This document shows positions 1,450 to 64,000 of a DNA stretch of 64,000 nt, in pieces (within the stretch, counting starts at the first letter, position 1; every line of letters begins with the position of its first letter). Under the pieces are notes generated by a model. The model worked only from the letters and a program-made list of their open reading frames with translations, was not told where the DNA came from and did no database searches. The translations under genes were made by a program, and so were the position numbers. The DNA comes from a virus, in IMG/VR virus record IMGVR_UViG_3300045988_120055, positions 53,031-117,030 of that record. The stretch is one strand, 5' to 3'.

Positions 1450-3702
1450 TTAATTTTTTAAGCTTAACCAGGTGCGCCTCTTATTATGATTTGTTACGAT
1501 ACATCTCTTAAACGCTGCTGGCTCTGCAATGAGCGCAAATCTTTTCTTAGCTCGTGTTAACATCGTATATAGCATACAGTTATCAAGCAATTTGTAATGT
1601 GTGTTGTCAATGATACCAATGACAGTTTGAGCAGCCGATCCTTGAAGCTTATGCGTTGTTAATGCATATGCCAATTGAAGTTGTCCTAACTGAGCGAAAG
1701 AATATTCAATCATCTTCTTATCCATGTCTGGATTCATCATGGCGTGAACAACTTTCTTATCATAATCAATGCCAGTAATGTATCCAATATCTCCATTAAA
1801 TGTGTTTCTTTCATAGTCATTACTGGTTTGAAGCACTTTATCTCCCACATAAAACTTCTTTGTTTTGCCATATGTAACAAACCTTGCATTGGATTTATTT
1901 TTATACACTTCTTTCTGAATTGCTACATTAAGTTCTTCTGTAGAGTTTATGCAACCTGACTTACGAGGAGAGATTACAACCACATTATCCATACCGTCTT
2001 GTTTAACACACGTCATGAACTGCTTTACAACCAAATTAAAAATATTCTCACGATTATTTCTGAAAATGTAAAACATATCATGTAACTCTCCATGAACTTG
2101 TTTAGCACTAAAATCCTCAATTGGAGAAATTGCTCTACGCACTTTTCTAGCATCACTAAGAATACCAGACTTTTCTGCTTGTCTCATTGGCTTCGTTAAT
2201 TGCACTGAATCCAACTCATCCATTTTGAGTAGATCAGAGAAAATGTTACCATATCCAATTGGTGGCAACTGCATATGATCTCCGCTAATAATAATCTTTG
2301 TACCTGGGCGAATTGCCAAAAGTAATTGATAGAACAACCCTGCATTAACCATACTTGCTTCGTCTAAAAGAACTACATCAATTGGTAATGGATTGTTAGC
2401 ATCGTGCATAAACGAGTCTACGCCTTGTGCTTCAAGTAATCGATGAATAGTTCTCGCTTCTAATCCTGTTGCTTCTTGGATTCTCTGTGCCGCCTTAGCA
2501 GATAACGCACATGCAGCAATGCTATAATTTCGTTTCTTATAACATCTGATAATTGGTTTTAATAAGGTAGTTTTACCCGTTCCAGCCTCACCACTAATTA
2601 AAACAACATTTGTCTGTAATGCAGTGTAGATGCCTTTGTTTTGCTCTTCGCTGAACGTAAAACCTTCTTCTTTTTCAACTTCAGCAATAACTTGTCCAAT
2701 TTCGTTTACAGTGATTATCTCTTTCTTCTTGGTAGAATTAGTATCTCTGCGTTCTTGCAACAATGCCAGTATATTCATTTCTGTATCATGGTACTTTTTC
2801 AAACCAATTAGCTCGCCACTAACATAGATGTCTGAAGGAAAATCATTTTCAACATAATCGTCAAATATATGTAGACATTCCCCAACCGTTGCACTAACTT
2901 CTGATCGCAACGTGGCAATCGCCATATATGTATGCCCGTCACTCTCGCCAAGATTCGTTAAATAATACGTCATAAAATAATCAAGTCGATACTTGGAATC
3001 TCTCAACTCTGGACGAATCTTTAAAGCAATATCATCAACTTTCTTAAATCCAAGACCTCTAATCTTAGTTAAAATGTAAGGATTTGTGTTGATTTTATAT
3101 TTTAACTTTTCTGGATCTGGCTCAGCTTCTACTAATTTCTTAATCATATTAAAGGTAATCCCATGAGGCTGTAGCATAACTACAACCTCGGAAATCACAT
3201 AATTATTAATGATCTTCTCTCTGAGCTTCGCCCATGTCTTGTTGCCAAGTCCTTTAATCATAGATGTATCGATAGTCTTGCATTTTCCTGCCATAACATC
3301 CTCAATGATATTTGGATATTCAGCAAGCAAGCTTTCAGCAATTGATTCTTTCGCTTGTGTTTTTAAAAACATTAGCTGATCGGTCTGTGTTTTTGGAACA
3401 TCTGCAACAACCGAAATCGGCTTATATTGATATTCGTGATATTTTTGAGAATAAATACATGTCGCTTTTACATGATACTTTGTCCCAATATATAACTGTT
3501 GAACTTCTCCAACAAGTTTACTTGCAACATATTCTTTATCTCCTGAGTCATCAAATTTATTATCATTGTATGGACTGAATTGTGGTATTTGGTCTTTTGT
3601 ACAAAACGCATAGATACCAAACATTGATTCTTCATTATAAAATATCTGATATGTAGGAATCATTTCAAACTCGCATACCTTTCCGCATGTCTGACTCTCC
3701 AT
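1450..3702 (-). CDS. RecD-like SF1 DNA helicase (ATP-dependent exoDNase alpha-subunit family)
   Basis: Walker A GEAGTGKTTLLKP, Walker B VVLLDEASMV, C-terminal TTHKLQGS motif typical of RecD/Dda/TraA-type helicases; 750 aa. Confidence 0.7.
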   Translation of the reverse strand: MESQTCGKVCEFEMIPTYQIFYNEESMFGIYAFCTKDQIPQFSPYNDNKFDDSGDKEYVASKLVGEVQQLYIGTKYHVKATCIYSQKYHEYQYKPISVVADVPKTQTDQLMFLKTQAKESIAESLLAEYPNIIEDVMAGKCKTIDTSMIKGLGNKTWAKLREKIINNYVISEVVVMLQPHGITFNMIKKLVEAEPDPEKLKYKINTNPYILTKIRGLGFKKVDDIALKIRPELRDSKYRLDYFMTYYLTNLGESDGHTYMAIATLRSEVSATVGECLHIFDDYVENDFPSDIYVSGELIGLKKYHDTEMNILALLQERRDTNSTKKKEIITVNEIGQVIAEVEKEEGFTFSEEQNKGIYTALQTNVVLISGEAGTGKTTLLKPIIRCYKKRNYSIAACALSAKAAQRIQEATGLEARTIHRLLEAQGVDSFMHDANNPLPIDVVLLDEASMVNAGLFYQLLLAIRPGTKIIISGDHMQLPPIGYGNIFSDLLKMDELDSVQLTKPMRQAEKSGILSDARKVRRAISPIEDFSAKQVHGELHDMFYIFRNNRENIFNLVVKQFMTCVKQDGMDNVVVISPRKSGCINSTEELNVAIQKEVYKNKSNARFVTYGKTKKFYVGDKVLQTSNDYERNTFNGDIGYITGIDYDKKVVHAMMNPDMDKKMIEYSFAQLGQLQLAYALTTHKLQGSAAQTVIGIIDNTHYKLLDNCMLYTMLTRAKKRFALIAEPAAFKRCIVTNHNKRRTWLSLKN

Positions 3703-3717
3703 TATTTAGGCAGCACC

Positions 3718-4200
3718 TCATTTCCCTTTTAAATAATTTTTAAAGTAATACTCAAAATACAATCGAATAAACAGCCCAGAATATTTATTATCTGGCATGA
3801 AGAATATCGGCACATCGTATTTGAACCAGAAGCTATGCAATGATCCAATGAATGATTTCTTGTTATACTGCGTGTTATAATTGCCCTCTGCAATATCTGA
3901 GTAATTGGCATTTTCAAGTAAAATAACTTTTGTCTCTGGTGCAAGACTTAGCTCTTTTTCGAATCTGGCACGATCTTTTGATAAATTGCCACTGATTTCT
4001 TCAAGACTTCCTTTGCGCTCAACACACACTTTGCTGTCAAAATACATATCTCTCTGAATACCAAGCTTCTCATGTGCAGGAATCATGAAACTGTAGTCTC
4101 CATAATCCAATGCTTTCTTTTTATGATTTACACCTTTTCTATCGAAGTAGTCTATGATATGATCAGCCTTTTGCTCCCTTGTGTCGACAAGGATTGTCAT
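3718..4200 (-). CDS. ERCC4-type (XPF/Mus81/Hef-like) nuclease domain protein
   Basis: N-terminal ILVDTREQ ... LDYGDYSF matches the ERCC4 nuclease signature (hhVDxRE ... GDY). Confidence 0.5.
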   Translation of the reverse strand: MTILVDTREQKADHIIDYFDRKGVNHKKKALDYGDYSFMIPAHEKLGIQRDMYFDSKVCVERKGSLEEISGNLSKDRARFEKELSLAPETKVILLENANYSDIAEGNYNTQYNKKSFIGSLHSFWFKYDVPIFFMPDNKYSGLFIRLYFEYYFKNYLKGK

Positions 4201-7415: not shown

Positions 7416-8670
7416 TCATTAATCCTCCAGCTTTTAATCTATTTAGTAGATCAGCTTCTTGAATTCGAGAGATATTGTGCTCAATGACATATTTTCTTGT
7501 CTTTTCATATGGAATATCATGAGATCTACAATATGTAGATAAACCAATCTGTTCTCCGTTCTGCGTAACAACATAAATGTATCTTGCTTTTTTAGAAATT
7601 TTATCGTTTTCTAATATCTTCTTTTTGATAATGTCAAGCGAATTAGGAATATTGCTTAAAATAATTTGATCAATAATTCTACTTGAATCTGAATCGAATC
7701 TTATATATCTTTTATCTGACTGCTGTTTGGCATATAACCCAAACCTCTTTTTACACAGCTTAATATACAAATCAATTTCTTGCTGAGTATATTCTGCCAA
7801 ACATAGTTCCCATGCCGATTTACCTCTACTTCCATCGTCTAAGCAATGAAGAGACAAACCAAATTCATTCAGTTTCCAAATCTTATTAATTCTTGGCATG
7901 TCTCGAATCTCTTTTAATTGATTAATAATCCTTGTCTCGAATCTGTAGTGTGGTTTACACCAATACTTTGTTCCAGAGCCAAAATCTTTATAGCCACCTT
8001 CATAATACTTTGGTTCAGAATTACATAAGTCTTTTAATTCTTCATACTTCCAAAACACATAGTCTTTTTCTGCTATAGAATGACATTCAATATATAGAGG
8101 TTGCGTTTCTCTTTTGTCGATGTGTCCATCTCCTAATGTGCCAAATAAAATAATTTGATACTGTTTATCGGTTAATGTCTTGTTATTTTTAAAAGTCCAA
8201 CAATTTAATTTATGAACTTCGGAACACCATTTCTGAATAACTCTTAACGAGGCACCGCATTCATCTGCCATTTCTTGATGAGTCATTCCCTTAACAACAT
8301 ATCTTTCATAGCACCAATCATAATCCTGATATGCCGCTTTAAAATTAGGATTATTAGACCTCATATACTTATCGCCAAGATTCAAATGACGACTTCGAGC
8401 CGCTATAGTTGCCACCGATAACTTCATTTGTTTACTAATTTTTTTAAAAGAAAGTCCTTGTTTATACAACTCTTCTAATCTGGCTTCTTCTTCTGGAGTC
8501 CATCTATGTCTCTTTTTAGGAATCACCATGTCTTTATCTAACAGTTTCCCATGTTTTTCTAATTGCATATTGTGTCTATTGCATAACTTCTTTTCTTTCC
8601 AAAAATGTCCGTCCAAAGTAGATGATAAACCGCAGACTGAACAAAATACTTCTTTTCCTGCCATAATCAT
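7405..8670 (-). CDS. LAGLIDADG-family homing endonuclease with N-terminal zinc ribbon and HTH
   Basis: CSVCG...CNRH zinc ribbon, sigma-r4-like HTH (LSFKKISKQMKLSVATIAARSRHL), two LAGLIDADG-like motifs (ILFGTLGDGHID; LHCLDDGSRG); overlaps both flanking replication genes by a few nt. Confidence 0.5.
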   Translation of the reverse strand: MIMAGKEVFCSVCGLSSTLDGHFWKEKKLCNRHNMQLEKHGKLLDKDMVIPKKRHRWTPEEEARLEELYKQGLSFKKISKQMKLSVATIAARSRHLNLGDKYMRSNNPNFKAAYQDYDWCYERYVVKGMTHQEMADECGASLRVIQKWCSEVHKLNCWTFKNNKTLTDKQYQIILFGTLGDGHIDKRETQPLYIECHSIAEKDYVFWKYEELKDLCNSEPKYYEGGYKDFGSGTKYWCKPHYRFETRIINQLKEIRDMPRINKIWKLNEFGLSLHCLDDGSRGKSAWELCLAEYTQQEIDLYIKLCKKRFGLYAKQQSDKRYIRFDSDSSRIIDQIILSNIPNSLDIIKKKILENDKISKKARYIYVVTQNGEQIGLSTYCRSHDIPYEKTRKYVIEHNISRIQEADLLNRLKAGGLMNAV

Positions 8671-10286
8671 CCCACCTCTTCAAGTGAATCACACACAGCT
8701 TTCAGCACAAACTTTCTTCCAAAGAATCCGCAATCAAGTGTAGTAACTGCACAAAACTCATCATTCATCATAGAATGGTCTTCCATATCCTCAAACGATC
8801 CATCATAGTTCCATTTAATGATCCACAATTTATCATTGTTACATGGTTTCAGGACAAGATGTTTATAATTGCTCATCTGACCAATGTCATAGTCGTCAAT
8901 CTCTTCAATATAAACTCTTACAGGCTTAAATCCCTGCCCAGAAATACGATCAATTTTCTTAATCGTGTCAACCATTTTTCTTGTAATGTCTGAAATATCA
9001 AGCATAATATCGACATCAACTGTTGTATCTTCTGGTTTATCTGGAAGAGTTTCTTCTATATAAGAGGTGAACTCAGCAAAGTTCTTTCTAGGAATTTCAA
9101 TACCACTGGCAAGTTCATGTCCATTTGCTTCAGCCAACTGACTGTTATTACACATCTGTCGGAAGTCTTTTACACCAACTGCTCGCATAGATCCTGCATA
9201 TGTATCTTCATTTTTCTTTAGCACAAGAATCGGCTTCTGGTATTTTTCAAGCAATTTGTTTCCAATTAACCCAGAAATACCATAATCAGTGTCGATAAAA
9301 GTTGTGATCATCTTTTTATCACTCTGAGCTTCACACTGTTCCGCAATCATTGGCATCAGCTGTGCGACCTCTTCATTTTGGTCTTCTTTGCATTGCTTTA
9401 ACTGTTTAATATATCCTCGTAACTTTTTATTGTCATCTTCAAGGAAAGCATTTAGAGCAATTTCATTCTGATCCATTCTGTTTGCAGCATTAACCAACGG
9501 TGCAATACTAAAAGCAACTGCTGTGCTGTTGAATTCAAATCCGCCAATAATCTTCTTAATCGCAGGATTTCTAATTTCTTTCAACGCTTCAGATACAATG
9601 TAACGATTCTCCATTACTCGCATATCCATCATATCTGCGATCAGCCCTACACCTGCAAGATCGACCAGATTATTTGCGTAATCTGTACCATTCTGCTCAT
9701 CAATGTATTTGCAAAACTTCCAGACAACACCTGCACCAGATAATTGCGGATTTTCATATTCTCTCTGAGAAGAAACCAGTGTGCAATAATCATCATAAGG
9801 AATATTTGAATCAATGGCATGGTGGTCTAGCACAATCACATCAACCCCTGTTTCTTTTAAATCCTTATACTGAGTCTCATCTTTATCTAAGCTATCAACA
9901 ACAATCAGTAAATCATAACCATAAAACTTGGCAATGTCCTGATTTGCTAACCCATGCTGTTTGCCTCGATTAATGTACACATCTACTGGATTTTCTGTCA
10001 TGTTTTTTAAATATCGTGCCATAATGGCACCAGATGTGATACCGTCAGTATCTGTATCAAAATGTACTGCAATACGTTTATCTTCATTTACCGCACTCAT
10101 TACAAGTCCGTATGCTTTATCAATATTTTTTAAGTCATCAAGAGGAAGTAAATCATCTTCCGTAGGATTTAAAAAATGCTCTGGGTCGTCAATACCACGC
10201 TCCTGCATGATAATTTCAAATACCTCATCTTCAAAAAATCCTCTGCAATCGTTCAAAATGTTATATTTCTTCTTCGACGTCTTCAT
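8667..10286 (-). CDS. RecJ-like DHH/DHHA1 single-strand DNA exonuclease
   Basis: DHH motifs HFDTDTDGITSG and VLDHHAI, C-terminal DHHA1-like NGHELASG; same position as the RecJ-like exonuclease of SPbeta-type replication modules. Confidence 0.55.
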   Translation of the reverse strand: MKTSKKKYNILNDCRGFFEDEVFEIIMQERGIDDPEHFLNPTEDDLLPLDDLKNIDKAYGLVMSAVNEDKRIAVHFDTDTDGITSGAIMARYLKNMTENPVDVYINRGKQHGLANQDIAKFYGYDLLIVVDSLDKDETQYKDLKETGVDVIVLDHHAIDSNIPYDDYCTLVSSQREYENPQLSGAGVVWKFCKYIDEQNGTDYANNLVDLAGVGLIADMMDMRVMENRYIVSEALKEIRNPAIKKIIGGFEFNSTAVAFSIAPLVNAANRMDQNEIALNAFLEDDNKKLRGYIKQLKQCKEDQNEEVAQLMPMIAEQCEAQSDKKMITTFIDTDYGISGLIGNKLLEKYQKPILVLKKNEDTYAGSMRAVGVKDFRQMCNNSQLAEANGHELASGIEIPRKNFAEFTSYIEETLPDKPEDTTVDVDIMLDISDITRKMVDTIKKIDRISGQGFKPVRVYIEEIDDYDIGQMSNYKHLVLKPCNNDKLWIIKWNYDGSFEDMEDHSMMNDEFCAVTTLDCGFFGRKFVLKAVCDSLEEVG

Positions 10287-42930: not shown

Positions 42931-43959
42931 TTATTCTGCCATGATTTGATGTACACGATAATTCTTATAGTCCTCATCTTTATATAAATAACCAATAGTT
43001 TTACCAATTACAGTTTGACGATCACTAAATTGTTTCTTTTTTAATCTATATGATATATAATAATTATAATAAAATTTAATTGCAATTTCACTAAATTGAC
43101 GTGCGATTACAGATCGTGCGATTCCTTCTTTTGATTTAATATAATACAAATCTGCAATTGCCTTGATATCCATTTTAGATTTTAAATATTGTATAAAACC
43201 AGAATTAATAACATCAATGGTTGTCAATTTTTCATAAGATAAAGTGTTACCAGTTAATTCTAATTGAGACTGCACATTAGTATATATCCTCTTTTGCTCT
43301 GCTTGATATTCTTCTATATTATTACATTTTTTTCGTGGTATTAATACAAAATCATCATATATATTCGTATCTCCCATTTTCAATTTATATTCATTCAATG
43401 TCTCGATAAAATCTTTGGAGACTGGTTTCCCAAAAATTGTTAAATCATTTTGATTAATATCTGAGAATTTTAGATTTCTTAACTCCTTTCCATTTATCCC
43501 ATTATATAAACTCACAATGTGAAATCTAGTATTCAATTTGGTATCGGCTGATGCATTGCACGACATCAGATTCGAAATAAACGCATTTATTTTATCTGGT
43601 GTAACATAATTAACATTAACTCTATTTGAAAAATATATATCAACTGCTAATTGCAAGTTTATAAATTTATCATTAACAAATGGATTATATTTAATGTAAT
43701 TTTGTTCATATGCATAAGTATATAGTTTGACGAGCTGGTCATATCTTTTTTTAATAGAATTCATACTTTTGGTTTTTTTACCTCTAGTATCTGATAATAT
43801 AGCCTCTTGTATTGTACCTGGTGCATACGTTAACCCAGATTCATTGTCGTCCGCAATATCAGAATCTAATAACCAATTCCATGTTGGGCGACGTGATTCT
43901 GATACGTGAGAATCTATATAATTTTGTATCAATTCTTTATTATTCATAATGTTCTCCAT
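42931..43959 (-). CDS. hypothetical protein (342 aa)
   Basis: Long ORF directly downstream of the MazF-like gene; no catalytic motif recognised. Confidence 0.4.
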   Translation of the reverse strand: MENIMNNKELIQNYIDSHVSESRRPTWNWLLDSDIADDNESGLTYAPGTIQEAILSDTRGKKTKSMNSIKKRYDQLVKLYTYAYEQNYIKYNPFVNDKFINLQLAVDIYFSNRVNVNYVTPDKINAFISNLMSCNASADTKLNTRFHIVSLYNGINGKELRNLKFSDINQNDLTIFGKPVSKDFIETLNEYKLKMGDTNIYDDFVLIPRKKCNNIEEYQAEQKRIYTNVQSQLELTGNTLSYEKLTTIDVINSGFIQYLKSKMDIKAIADLYYIKSKEGIARSVIARQFSEIAIKFYYNYYISYRLKKKQFSDRQTVIGKTIGYLYKDEDYKNYRVHQIMAE

Positions 43960-52213: not shown

Positions 52214-53308
52214 CTACTCTTCTGAAATAATTTCCACCGCAGCTTCATAAAATCTATTATATAAAGTTGCATTTGTTTTAATAAGCTGAGATTTAGACAG
52301 TCCATGAGCATACTCATCCCAGTTAACGCCATTCTCTGTCATCTTAGTATAGATTTTCCGATAAACAGAAGTTCCACCTTTAGACTTATTTCCAATATGA
52401 TTAGCATAATTGGTAATCTTGATCTTCATTTCTTCCCAATCAGGCTGTGCATTTTCTTTTCTGAACTGTCGCAGAAGTTTTTCCAATGAATTAACTAGCA
52501 GATCAGGGTATTTATCATAACAAAGGTCAATTGTTGGGACATTACCTCTTTCTCCAATATTATACTTCTCTTTGTATTCTTTTCGATCCTGTTCCCACAC
52601 AATCCCATATGTGTTGGTAAGATACCTGTATGCCTCTCTAAGAATATCTCTAGTAGTGGTTCCTAGTTCGTCAGATTCTTTTAGAATATCATCAATGATA
52701 GAGTAGACATTAGATTTCCATTCATTAAGTTTGTATTCTGCAATAACGCTTTCCGTATCTACTACTGGAATATCTTTCGTAGGTTTACCGATCTGCTTAT
52801 ACAGTTCTTTCCGTTCGGCTTTCATTTCTTTAACAATATCTGCCAGCTGATTAAATCCCTTGATAGTAACCTTATACAGGCGTTCATTGTTTCTTTCCAT
52901 CTGCTTCATAAGTTCTGTCTGCTCTGTAAAAAATTGCTCCACTGTTGTTACAGGAGTGCCTGTTCTTAATTTTCCATGACGATAAGCTCCAATCACATCC
53001 CATACCCAATCCATAAAGGCATCAGCTTTGGGCTGTCTACTTCTTCTACAAATTTCATAAATGCCACGTTCATTATAGATATAACTAGAATAAGATTTTC
53101 CATCAGTTGTTTCCAATTTGGTAACAACTGAATCTCTATCTAGTCTTTCTTTATTGGCATCGTGAATTTTTGCAATGGCGACTCTAGGATCTTTATATTC
53201 TAATGCAAGTCCAATCTGTTGCCTGCTCATCCACAACTGATCGTCAGCACTATAAAAATCACACGTTATATCGTTAAAATTTTCCGTTTTTACTAACTGT
53301 ATGTTCAT
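52214..53308 (-). CDS. Bro-N domain phage antirepressor-like protein
   Basis: Bro-N signature ...LWMSRQQIGLALEYKDPRVAIAKIHD...SYIYNERGIYEICRRSRQPKADAFMDWVWDVI. Confidence 0.6.
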   Translation of the reverse strand: MNIQLVKTENFNDITCDFYSADDQLWMSRQQIGLALEYKDPRVAIAKIHDANKERLDRDSVVTKLETTDGKSYSSYIYNERGIYEICRRSRQPKADAFMDWVWDVIGAYRHGKLRTGTPVTTVEQFFTEQTELMKQMERNNERLYKVTIKGFNQLADIVKEMKAERKELYKQIGKPTKDIPVVDTESVIAEYKLNEWKSNVYSIIDDILKESDELGTTTRDILREAYRYLTNTYGIVWEQDRKEYKEKYNIGERGNVPTIDLCYDKYPDLLVNSLEKLLRQFRKENAQPDWEEMKIKITNYANHIGNKSKGGTSVYRKIYTKMTENGVNWDEYAHGLSKSQLIKTNATLYNRFYEAAVEIISEE

Positions 53309-53577
53309 TCTTCATCTTCCTTTCTAAACTGTCTCATTTTTCTCTACACTCATTATTTTTGTATAACTGTATTCCGTAAACCAATAGGAATAAAATCAAC
53401 ATTTAATTCCAACTATTAGTGTGCCAATCCTAATAGAAACCTATTCTATTCCTATTAGTTCTCTATGTAATTAACACCTTACCTATTAACAATTCTATGC
53501 TTAGTTAATCATTAATTTGTGTATAATAAATTTGACAAAGAACCGACCTGCCAAATCGGTTCTCGTCAAATATTTCC

Positions 53578-56294: not shown

Positions 56295-56322
56295 TGTATT
56301 GTCTCCTTTACTTACTTATATT

Positions 56323-56378
56323 ATACACAATATCTACACACTGTCAATAATATTTTACACACTTTTTACACAATATTA
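56323..56378. repeat. four TACACA(A/C) direct repeats in the hicAB upstream region
   Basis: TATACACAATAT / CTACACACTG / TTTACACACTTT / TTACACAATAT between 56319 and 56378; candidate operator sites. Confidence 0.4.
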
Positions 56379-59643: not shown

Positions 59644-60363
59644 CTATAAACAATAACTAATTAACCATTCTTTTCCATCGTACTTTACAAAACTATACCC
59701 ATCCATTGGAATTTTTGTTTCCAACATCTTCTTAATTTTCTTATCAGCTTCAATTTCATCTGCATCTTCATGAAAATTTTTCATAAATTCAAAATTTTCT
59801 GTAAAATCTTCTAATGTATAAACAACTGTGCCATTGTTTAAATGCTTTTCTGCTTCTTTTCTAGTACAGCCATCTTCCATTAAAATTTCAACATTTTTTT
59901 CCATAGCCCAGAGTTCTTTTAAAAGCTGGATCACAAATTCTGGATATTCCATAAAGTAATACCATTCATAAGCTGATTCTATCTGATCCATTTCTTCTCT
60001 AGTGAGATCTTCATAGTATTCGTCGGTATATCCGTTTACATTTGCCCACGTTTCAAAATCCATTGCTGTTCTCTGGAATTCTTTTACCTTGCTACTGATT
60101 CGTTGCAAGTCATTTTTTTCAATTGTGATCAAAGGTTTTCCATAATCATCATAAAGATCTTCCCATAAGTCGTTATTCCATTTTGATTTTGGTTCATGCT
60201 GTATGTAAATGTTTGTTGATCCATTTATATTCCAGCCCGTTGTAGCAACTAATTTTCCACTTTCTTTTTCTATTCCATAAAACATTCCAGGCTTCACGCA
60301 AAATCCAGCGTATGAAGCATGGTTAAAATGTTCTGGCAAGATCATTTCTTTAAATTCGTACAT
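59644..60363 (-). CDS. hypothetical protein
   Basis: 239 aa. Confidence 0.4.
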   Translation of the reverse strand: MYEFKEMILPEHFNHASYAGFCVKPGMFYGIEKESGKLVATTGWNINGSTNIYIQHEPKSKWNNDLWEDLYDDYGKPLITIEKNDLQRISSKVKEFQRTAMDFETWANVNGYTDEYYEDLTREEMDQIESAYEWYYFMEYPEFVIQLLKELWAMEKNVEILMEDGCTRKEAEKHLNNGTVVYTLEDFTENFEFMKNFHEDADEIEADKKIKKMLETKIPMDGYSFVKYDGKEWLISYCL

Positions 60364-60504
60364 AATTTCCAGCCTTTCTGCCTATTTAGGACTTTAAAAT
60401 ATTAACTGTTCTCTTATATTATACACGATAATTTCCATCGTGAAAAGTAGCGAGGGCGGAATTAAACCGCCCGATAAAAGCACTCTTTTATCTACCATAC
60501 GCCA

Positions 60505-60605
60505 CCGTTTTTCCGTTCCAATACGTCACTACCATCAACCAGTAGTACAGTCATTCCGTTCATTTAAAGTAACTATTAGCTTCAATAGTCGAGTCTTTCC
60601 GTTAG
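60505..60605. repeat. three spaced TTCCGTT repeats (about 42-bp periodicity) inside a GC-richer, hairpin-rich noncoding island
   Basis: TTTTTCCGTTCC (60509), CATTCCGTTCA (60552), TCTTTCCGTTAG (60595); flanking hairpins CACGAT-N7-ATCGTG, GGGCGG-N7-CCGCCC, GTAGT-N7-ACTAC. Confidence 0.45.
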
Positions 60606-60640
60606 GGTGTAGTCTGCTTCACTACAGACAGTAAAAGCCT

Positions 60641-60898
60641 TTAATTGGCTATGTAACTGAATAATTTTGACGGATCTTCTTTTAAAATTTCCGTCATATC
60701 TTCTATTGCTTCTTCTTGTATTCTATACTTCCGAAAAATTCCGAACGTGTTCTTGAATAGCAAGAAATATCTGTATCCAAACAAATCATCGTCAATTCCA
60801 GCGTTTGGCGGATTTTCCGTAAAGTACAGTGTGCTATACTTGCGTTTTATCTGCGTTGCTAATGCTTCCATGGTCGTTCTCTTACTCATTCTTTCCAC
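60641..60898 (-). CDS. hypothetical protein
   Basis: 85 aa. Confidence 0.4.
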   Translation of the reverse strand: MERMSKRTTMEALATQIKRKYSTLYFTENPPNAGIDDDLFGYRYFLLFKNTFGIFRKYRIQEEAIEDMTEILKEDPSKLFSYIAN

Positions 60899-63546: not shown

Positions 63547-64000
63547 TTAATTTAAAATTGAAATGTAGCCGTTAAATGCTTTAGAATCAACATACCAACC
63601 ACGAATATCCATTTCACGACCGTATTTTTCATAATCAAAATAATTTGATACACTCGTTGAAATGTTTTCGAGTAGTCCAGTATTATCAACATACTGATAA
63701 GCAACGTCTTTCATGCTGTCGCAATCTGAATAGATGATATAGTTACCATCTTCTACAATGTCAAAGGCTTCATCTAAAGTTGATGTTTCTGAACTAATTT
63801 CATTAAATACCGTTCTTTCTTCATCTGAAAGTTCTGAATACCGTTCTCCAATTTCCTGGAGTCTTGAAAGTGGTGTGTATTCTCCTAAGTCCGTTGTATC
63901 AAACTCTGCATCATAATCAGCGACAAAGTATTCTTCATATTTTGCATTGATACCGATTTCTTTTAAGATGTTCTTGATTTCATCTTCATCAGCAAGTGGG
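63547..64000 (-). CDS. ardA: antirestriction protein ArdA, C-terminal part (gene starts beyond window end)
   Basis: Minus-strand translation ...IIYSDCDSMKDVAYQYVDNTGLLENISTSVSNYFDYEKYGREMDIRGWYVDS... closely parallels the ArdA C-terminal signature (IIHSDCDDMYDVARYYIEETG...NYIDYQAYGRDLDLSG); stop at 63547. Confidence 0.7.
   Translation of the reverse strand, partial: PLADEDEIKNILKEIGINAKYEEYFVADYDAEFDTTDLGEYTPLSRLQEIGERYSELSDEERTVFNEISSETSTLDEAFDIVEDGNYIIYSDCDSMKDVAYQYVDNTGLLENISTSVSNYFDYEKYGREMDIRGWYVDSKAFNGYISILN

Follow-up and report, generated by a model that had tools for sequence, protein, structure and literature searches.

A conserved structured leader and a probable reduced tRNA mimic at a cassette-exchange locus of large gut phages

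The stretch of DNA analyzed here, termed the window, is 64,000 nt long (IMG/VR virus record IMGVR_UViG_3300045988_120055, positions 53,031 to 117,030) and comes from an uncultured gut phage of about 160 kb. Between an 85-aa open reading frame (ORF; 60641-60898) and a 239-aa ORF (59644-60363), both on the minus strand, lies an intergenic gap at 60364-60640, the features of which are read on the minus strand. This gap very probably specifies a minus-sense RNA structure that is under selection and that ends in a reduced tRNA mimic, with a promoter next to it. Structurally, the 85-aa gene is followed on its 3' side by a leader of about 150 nt made up of four hairpins (H0 to H3) and three single-stranded AACGGAA motifs 43 nt apart, and the leader is followed by a tRNA-like element (TLS). 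An original prediction, made from the sequence of the window, had described the gap as a structured, GC-richer island with periodic TTCCGTT repeats, and had proposed a noncoding RNA, an origin or iteron region, or a pac-like site. That prediction missed that the GC-rich hairpin of the island is a tRNA-type T arm and that promoter and 5' untranslated region (UTR) take up the final 55 nt of the gap. The minus strand of the gap folds more stably than shuffled sequences (z = -3.0).

The tRNA-like element

The TLS has an acceptor helix of 6 bp and a T arm, with no anticodon arm and no D stem. The GGGCGG-N7-CCGCCC hairpin that had been noticed earlier is confirmed and makes up the T arm. An alignment of twenty distinct variants was tested against the proposed structure, and 97.6% of its cells are paired, compared with 47-63% when the partners are slid by 1 to 3 columns. 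Three pairs of the T stem show changes on both sides, with stems that read GGGCGG/CCGCCC, GGTGGG/CCCACC, GATAGG/CCTATC, or GGTAGG/CCTACC. The 3' strand of the acceptor varies only opposite the G, G, and U of the invariant GUGGCG, and solely by C/U or A/G exchanges, so that the pairs of this helix alternate between Watson-Crick and wobble (G-C or G-U). The same two helices are returned by RNAalifold when it is run unguided. By our own count from the pairing tables, G-U pairs make up 27 of 378 cells in the TLS and 66 of 690 in the leader. Because these pairs would be A-C mismatches on the other strand, the functional strand is the minus strand, and the suggestion of a noncoding RNA is supported by helices that are both conserved and covarying.

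Several details of the element are those of a tRNA elbow. The T loop reads TTCAATT or TTCGATT (UUCRAUU) in 16 of the 20 variants, and the window copy reads TTTAATT. The pair that closes the loop is G-C in all but one of the 20, like the G53-C61 pair of the tRNA T arm, and loop and closing pair together follow the pattern universal among tRNAs. Within the D-like loop UAUGGUA, the GG at the position of G18-G19 is near-invariant, and a residue equivalent to U8 is also kept. The arm found at the anticodon-arm position is dispensable, as short variants of 47 nt have a 6-nt AUUUGY in its place. A covariance model built on the TLS scores 92 bits for a single copy in the window and recovers one or two copies in the 20-kb early regions of relatives; it finds no further copy in the window, in the distant phage L256 (relatives carry L numbers throughout), or beside distant homologues of an ORF inserted at the locus, discussed below. 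With Rfam 15, no family reaches its gathering threshold at the locus in the window or in relatives, whether gathering or permissive searches are used. The best weak Rfam hit is tRNA-Sec, with 19.7 bits against a cut-off of 47, and in local comparison the T arm of tmRNA is the sole match, over 17 nt. ARAGORN reports no tRNA anywhere in the window, no tmRNA, and no call at the locus in relatives.

A canonical tRNA was rejected, since the anticodon arm (a 5-bp stem with a 7-nt loop) is absent and the element falls below the thresholds of ARAGORN and Rfam. A tmRNA was likewise rejected, since there is no ARAGORN tmRNA call, the Rfam match is limited to the T arm, and the acceptor strands are only 48-61 nt apart. 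The tRNA-like domain of tmRNA, mascRNA of MALAT1, bacterial YrlA, and the tRNA-like structures of plant viruses all resemble the phage TLS in having an acceptor helix stacked on a T arm, an analogue of the D loop, and no anticodon, but the phage TLS has no tag reading frame, pseudoknots, Ro-binding helix, or encoded CCA. Some alleles match E. coli tRNA-His (its sequence was confirmed against 5,426 genomes) in the 5' GGUGGC, the T arm GUGGGUUCRAWUCCCA, and the 3' GCCAC. The TLS differs from tRNA-His, and from canonical tRNA generally, in the loss of the D stem and the whole anticodon arm and in having an additional nucleotide where the T stem joins the acceptor strand, and the resemblance is only a hint as to where the TLS came from. 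An attachment site (attP) for the integrase-like gene at 42931-43959 is also unlikely, as the gene lies 17 kb from the locus and the invariant 5' strand to which the variable 3' strand remains complementary is carried by the phage itself.

The closest known counterparts are the t-elements, tRNA-like processing signals of plant mitochondria (Forner et al. 2007, PMC1920247). These are found with the T-arm motif GGTTCRANYCC (PMC1920247), which the T arm of the TLS fits, and it does so beside an acceptor-like helix in a non-canonical cloverleaf, as expected of a t-element. Both have an incomplete cloverleaf, this conserved T (pseudouridine) arm, and an acceptor-like helix, and both lie between protein genes of a polycistronic transcript. 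The TLS differs in belonging to a bacteriophage instead of an organelle, in being more reduced (an optional hairpin replaces the anticodon arm, and the D stem is missing), in its 6-bp T stem and one bulged base, and in that its cleavage is predicted.

The 3' strand of the acceptor has another potential partner. GUAGUGACG (60521-60529, minus strand), which overlaps the 3' arm of H3, can pair with the acceptor 3' strand (60447-60453). This pairing is complete (7 of 7) in alleles that read UCGYUAC, with one co-varying case in L005 (GUAGCGA:UCGUUAC), and an alternative fold is possible. This alternative pairing, with GTAGTGA, is seen in 86% of cells as against 99% for GTGGCG, and is therefore not preferred.

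A second tRNA-shaped gene lies at 30299-30436 on the minus strand, where the Rfam tRNA model scores 46.4 bits. In place of the anticodon loop it carries an AT-rich insert of roughly 69 nt (the model anchors are 81 nt apart), giving a total length of 134-142 nt, and ARAGORN misses it. At least 18 distinct variants occur in the same phage family. By eye, the insert contains a promoter-like TTTACA-N17-TATAAA and, on its other strand, GGAGG-N7-ATG.

The leader and the downstream promoter

In the leader, 99.9% of cells are paired across 30 distinct variants. H0, which marks the 5' edge of the conserved noncoding block, is invariant in all 30. H1 exists as two alleles, GTCTGT/GCAGAC and ACTCAT/ATGAGT, that have no sequence in common and yet occupy the same pairing columns; five of its six pairs are changed on both sides, and every cell is paired. 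H2 shows a single stem change, a C to U in L260 that leaves a U-G wobble. H3 varies among U-G, U-A, and C-G with 99.4% of cells paired, and in the divergent L416 it reads ACTATC/GATAGT, a two-sided compensatory change from C-G to U-A. The AACGGAA motifs in the linkers are also conserved. Motif 1 is kept while the linker bases around it vary, and its only variant is AACGGAT (L260/L261); motif 2 is invariant in the 30 variants; and motif 3, which is followed by AAAC before the TLS, has AACGGGA as its only variant, in L010 and a few others. Judged by eye from the alignment, motif 1 with H2 and motif 2 with H3 are diverged paralogues of 43 nt, and the two full units are read as old tandem duplicates.

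The repeats had been reported as three TTCCGTT copies about 42 bp apart. The three copies are present on the plus strand at 60511, 60554, and 60597, and their spacing is exactly 43/43 bp. The same spacing is found in most relatives, with 44/43 in about one-quarter and 44/44 in L416. TTCCGTT is enriched, as the original prediction proposed to check, with 17 copies in the window compared with 6.75 +/- 2.6 in shuffles. A search of the entire window for any 7-mer occurring three times at an equal spacing of 15-100 bp gave 5 triples, where 40 Markov simulations gave 0.1 on average. The TTCCGTT triple is the only one of these that is both noncoding and spaced by a number that is not a multiple of 3; the remaining four, with spacings of 33, 36, or 48 bp, all fall within genes. 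The core TTCCGT(A/T) had also been said to recur in other intergenic spots. Sites at 53372, 53574, and 59288 do exist, but 18 of the 24 sites are coding, where they correspond to purine-rich codons on the sense strand, and the other intergenic sites have no common flanking context. They look like chance occurrences, and the motif was rejected as a genome-wide signal. A scan for the motif in triplicate found no other family with 43/44 spacing, apart from plain tandem or coding repeats. Tandem units of 43-44 nt that start with AACGGAA and continue into a hairpin, for example AACGGAACACAGTGTCGAGTGTAACTCGACATCGGAACTAACAC, do occur in JGI metagenomes (L341, L376, L381, L423, L427, L431) and in a giant-virus metagenome-assembled genome (L141); they came up because of the pattern that was searched for, and a relationship to the phage element is improbable.

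Conservation of the leader is not explained by coding. Its identity to the window is 87-99%, versus 67-87% for the adjacent DNA of the 85-aa gene, so that sequence constraint is stronger on the leader than on the coding DNA beside it. In many relatives the upstream ORF ends about 20 nt earlier, and the stretch beyond remains conserved nonetheless. The absence of a credible ORF, as first described, was upheld, since a 64-aa plus-strand ORF (60440-60634) and a 23-codon minus-strand ORF are both broken in relatives by indels or loss of the start codon. A small leader peptide was rejected on account of a frameshifting indel in L013, loss of the start codon in L025, and non-synonymous changes in the loops. 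Pairing of the leader 5' end with the downstream ribosome-binding site (RBS), as seen in the minimum free energy fold, is not conserved and is broken by RBS variants. L416, an ENA metagenome contig of 2,059 bp, is the most divergent copy of the leader found and keeps all three motifs, which indicates that more distant relatives exist outside IMG/VR.

The promoter of the 239-aa gene is invariant across relatives. It has GTGTATAATATAAG in common with a canonical TTGACA-N17-TATAAT promoter at 56300-56345 (minus strand), and this 14-mer is a possible extended -10/start-site consensus specific to the family. A 9-mer, GGAAAUUAU, occurs in the loop of the palindrome in the promoter spacer (60428-60436, minus strand) and again at 60361-60369, where it reaches two bases into the start codon; most relatives retain both copies. 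No terminator was found in the gap. Most of the other gaps inspected have a hairpin-plus-T-run terminator, a promoter, or both, whereas here there is a structured block with the TLS directly before the promoter. The features of the gap are collected in Table 1.

Table 1. Features of the gap in the order in which they are read on the minus strand, with positions in the window
Feature	Position	Strand	Sequence or form	Remarks
H0	60636..60655	-	AGCC-AAUUAAA-GGCU, then UUUU	small hairpin; loop contains the stop codon of the 85-aa gene; 5' edge of conserved noncoding block
H1	60612..60629	-	GUCUGU...GCAGAC	allelic pairing
AACGGAA motif 1	60597..60603	-	AACGGAA (TTCCGTT on plus strand)	single-stranded linker H1-H2
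H2	60571..60590	-	G-ACUAUU GAAGCU AAUAGU-U	nearly invariant
AACGGAA motif 2	60554..60560	-	AACGGAA	linker H2-H3
H3	60528..60546	-	ACUACU GGUUGAU GGUAGU	pairing-preserving stem changes
AACGGAA motif 3	60511..60517	-	AACGGAA	immediately upstream of the TLS
TLS	60446..60506	-	61 nt	covariation, RNAalifold, covariance model
TLS acceptor 5' strand	60500-60505	-	GUGGCG	
TLS D-loop-like segment	60493-60499	-	UAUGGUA	
TLS optional arm	60473-60492	-	hairpin, 8 bp with 4-nt loop	
TLS T arm	60454-60472	-	GGGCGG-UUUAAUU-CCGCCC	one unpaired U after
TLS acceptor 3' strand	60447-60452	-	CGCUAC	U next, within UUUU
Promoter of the 239-aa gene	60418..60446	-	UUUUCA-N17-UAUAAU	sigma-70 type; top promoter match in region, 10/12
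Palindrome in promoter spacer	60424-60442	-	CACGAU-N7-AUCGUG	
RBS and start codon of the 239-aa gene	60361..60379	-	AGAAAGG	

Phage family and exchange of gene cassettes

The genes of the window are all on the minus strand, its GC content is 33.7%, and among its proteins are a DnaE-type polymerase, a helicase, a RecJ-like exonuclease, NAD-salvage enzymes, Bro-N anti-repressor-like proteins, and an ArdA-like fragment. With the polymerases of large Clostridioides and Clostridium phages such as phiCD211 and c-st, the DnaE-type enzyme shares 42% identity, and the closest cultured relatives have Clostridioides and Clostridium as their hosts. Given this kinship and the strong Shine-Dalgarno motifs of the window genes (judged by eye from the sequence), the host is probably a Firmicute. 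A Pfam census of 87 ORFs also listed a PemK/MazF toxin, a HicA toxin, RlaP (an RNA-repair nucleotidyltransferase), a LAGLIDADG endonuclease, a PcfJ-like protein, and Phage_integrase. The early region begins with the ArdA-like anti-restriction fragment (63550-63714, minus strand). In L230, a related contig of 156 kb, an intergenic region of about 1 kb with diverging transcription (8061-9021) lies 4.4-5.3 kb upstream of the locus; a region of this type is likely the control region of the early operon and is a better origin candidate than the locus.

Related gut-phage contigs that carry the locus number more than 60. The relatives in IMG/VR measure about 150-170 kb and come chiefly from human-gut samples. 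Four samples were drawn: 21 loci retrieved through the 239-aa protein, one per genome; loci matching a 14-mer scan, about 36 of which carry the locus; loci retrieved through homologues of the 85-aa protein; and metagenome contigs, 13 of which carry the locus. A BLAST search of the locus against 50,697 phage records gave no match, and two scans of GTDB species representatives (185,579 of them for the 43-nt unit) found no host or prophage copy.

The locus is also a hotspot of gene-cassette exchange. In some relatives (among them L001, at 3113-3858, L010, L016, L244, L249, and L466) it contains a 746-bp insertion with an ORF of 219/234 aa, flanked by a 13-nt direct repeat, GTGGCGTATGGTA; the insertion therefore leaves a short TLS before the ORF and a long TLS after it. 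Other phage families have homologues of this ORF (42-54% identity) with no TLS, and there is no relationship between the inserted ORF and the 239-aa protein. Some relatives have chimeric T arms with breakpoints in the T loop, which point to crossovers there. The region is absent from L232, and the genes downstream of the locus differ between relatives.

Possible functions and competing explanations

RNA processing and regulation, as opposed to DNA replication or packaging, is the job that we consider most likely for the gap, which we tentatively view as a composite region that regulates the early operon at the RNA level. The mechanism, t-element-like processing combined with a protein-binding leader, is put forward more tentatively still and draws on the analogy with plant mitochondria. 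A minus-strand transcript would cover the gap along with the upstream genes of the early operon. The TLS would act like a t-element, being cut by host RNase P on its 5' side and by RNase Z after the discriminator base. In Firmicutes, tRNA precursors without an encoded CCA are substrates of RNase Z. Cleavage would free the upstream message, its 3' UTR formed by the leader, from read-through RNA, and expression of the next cassette would then rely on its own regulated, operator-bearing promoter. The AACGGAA linkers may serve as a platform for a putative RNA-binding protein that would control the stability or translation of either the upstream message or the released leader RNA. Finally, the leader, the first 13 nt of the TLS, and the promoter could double as recombination anchors for cassette swapping, as these are near-identical between phages.

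Several observations weigh against this proposal. Cleavage of the TLS by RNase P and RNase Z is something that we wholly infer by analogy. The stack is non-canonical, with a 6-bp T stem, one unpaired pyrimidine, and an acceptor of 6-7 bp, and T-loop position 56 of the window TLS is U rather than C. With only one or two copies of the TLS per genome, there is no general punctuation system. In L250 another gene is joined to the leader within the optional arm and both T arm and promoter are lost, so the parts are separable. The homologues all come from a single family of closely related phages, and many of the "compensatory" cells therefore trace to few allelic events. The flanking proteins have no Pfam, PHROG, or PADLOC match, no AACGGAA-binding protein was identified, and the AlphaFold model of the 85-aa protein (pLDDT 51, the confidence score of the model) is too poor to use.

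Alternatively, the locus may be a mobile regulatory cassette at the DNA level, in which the conserved blocks are homology anchors and an ordinary promoter and the hairpins merely slow or stop read-through. We consider this unlikely as a full account, although it is compatible with, and does not exclude, the RNA-level proposal. The model is PeSLs, promoter plus stem-loop cassettes that drive modular shuffling (PMC2839356) and that occur in T4-type phages as many dispersed copies of a promoter with a simple terminator stem-loop (Arbiol et al. 2010, PMC2839356). Here, too, a conserved promoter and a structured element bound variable early genes, and insertions or replacements end at conserved noncoding sequence: the 746-bp insertion lies between GTGGCGTATGGTA repeats, chimeric T arms break in the loop, L250 has a fusion to another gene, L232 has lost the region, downstream genes vary, and noncoding DNA is conserved above the neighboring gene. 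However, there are one or two copies per genome (one in the 64-kb window) instead of a dispersed family, there is no U-tract terminator, and the locus has a tRNA-shaped element and its own 150-nt leader. Recombination alone would also leave unexplained the tRNA-type T loop, the wobble-restricted variation opposite an invariant strand, and the swap of H1 for a different hairpin in the same register.

It is also conceivable, though improbable, that the phage family makes anticodon-less tRNA mimics (the TLS and perhaps the interrupted tRNA at 30.3 kb) that are released from early transcripts and act in trans. The released minihelix, possibly CCA-added and charged, would decoy host factors that recognize the tRNA elbow or acceptor, such as tRNA-targeting defense nucleases or transferases, while the AACGGAA leader would sponge a host RNA-binding regulator such as CsrA; such mimics might, for example, decoy host tRNA-directed immunity or hijack tRNA-modifying or CCA-adding enzymes. 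The TLS does keep the universal elbow and acceptor features without an anticodon arm. The early region also holds ArdA-like anti-restriction and toxin-antitoxin-type domains, and these phages conserve another tRNA-shaped gene that lacks a normal anticodon loop. AACGGAA fits ANGGA, the pattern of CsrA sites, but the 6 GGA triplets in 277 nt are unstriking when about 3 are expected from base composition (our own count and estimate). Resemblance of some alleles to E. coli tRNA-His likewise favors a mimic, but the discriminator is U in every variant as opposed to C in that tRNA, and T stem and acceptor vary freely in sequence, an argument against imitation of any single tRNA. Release, CCA addition, and charging of the TLS are suppositions, and neither a host copy (GTDB scans) nor a target (duplex search of window translation starts) was identified. 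In that duplex search, the leader and TLS were compared with 98 translation-start regions using RNAduplex, and antisense action in trans was rejected because the best value, -29 kcal/mol, was no better than the -30 to -37 of shuffled RNA. A related precedent is the C4 antisense RNA of phages P1 and P7, which is reportedly a regulator processed by RNase P in the immI operon, upstream of ant. Both are small structured RNAs that lie, in a large phage, within an early or immunity operon and ahead of Bro-N genes of the anti-repressor type, with RNase P as a possible maturation enzyme, but the phage element studied here has no complementary sites at window translation starts and no sequence or Rfam similarity to C4.

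Origin or terminase (pac) function, as put forward at the outset, or partition function of the three in-phase TTCCGTT boxes now appears highly unlikely. Three direct repeats about four helical turns apart in strongly conserved noncoding DNA would suit such a site, as would the plasmid-like prophages among the phage relatives and the switch to divergent transcription about 4.4-5.3 kb upstream. Cumulative GC skew, however, is monotonic through the site, with no inflection. The gap had been called markedly GC-rich; its GC content of 0.39 exceeds the window mean (0.337) only modestly, but no other of the 16 noncoding gaps of at least 90 nt reaches it (they range from 0.22 to 0.36), and as the least AT-rich gap it has no unwinding element. 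Spacing shifts to 44/43 or 44/44 in some members, the variation obeys RNA pairing rules with strand-specific G-U wobbles, and the neighboring genes include no recognized initiator, partition, or terminase gene. A pac-like site is not supported by the position of the locus, which is about 62-82 kb (usually 73-80 kb) from one contig end in many independent contigs of 150-170 kb and is therefore not at a terminus.

Two further readings are just as remote. The leader could be a type III antitoxin-like or pseudo-antitoxin RNA, in which hairpin units of about 43 nt with a nuclease recognition motif neutralize an endoribonuclease of the ToxN/AbiQ/CptN type. Its units are in tandem, with an A-rich conserved motif at the start and a hairpin within, their length of 43-44 nt presumably falls within the range of type III antitoxins, and the early region has an anti-defense-like character. 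On the other hand, the units are only about 50-65% alike (by eye) where near-identical repeats would be expected, no ToxN-like neighbor was found by PADLOC or Pfam and the downstream genes vary, and the unit is absent from the GTDB representatives scanned. The TLS could instead be a decaying tRNA pseudogene accompanied by chance repeats and devoid of function. The missing anticodon and D arms, the rejection of the element as a tRNA by ARAGORN and Rfam, and the mutated T loop of the window copy would all fit decay, but its pairing has survived several allelic replacements, the leader is far more conserved than neighboring coding DNA, and the TLS is duplicated around an inserted gene. The signs of purifying selection do not fit with a functionless remnant.

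The analysis provides an RNA motif with exact coordinates, a covariance model, and predicted cleavage sites in an abundant, uncultured family of large human-gut phages, and it indicates that reduced tRNA mimics in phage genomes escape tRNA finders and Rfam. If the proposed t-element-like processing holds, the locus would be a phage case of the tRNA-shaped "punctuation" so far known from organelle transcripts, coupled here to an unusually conserved noncoding leader at a hotspot of cassette exchange.

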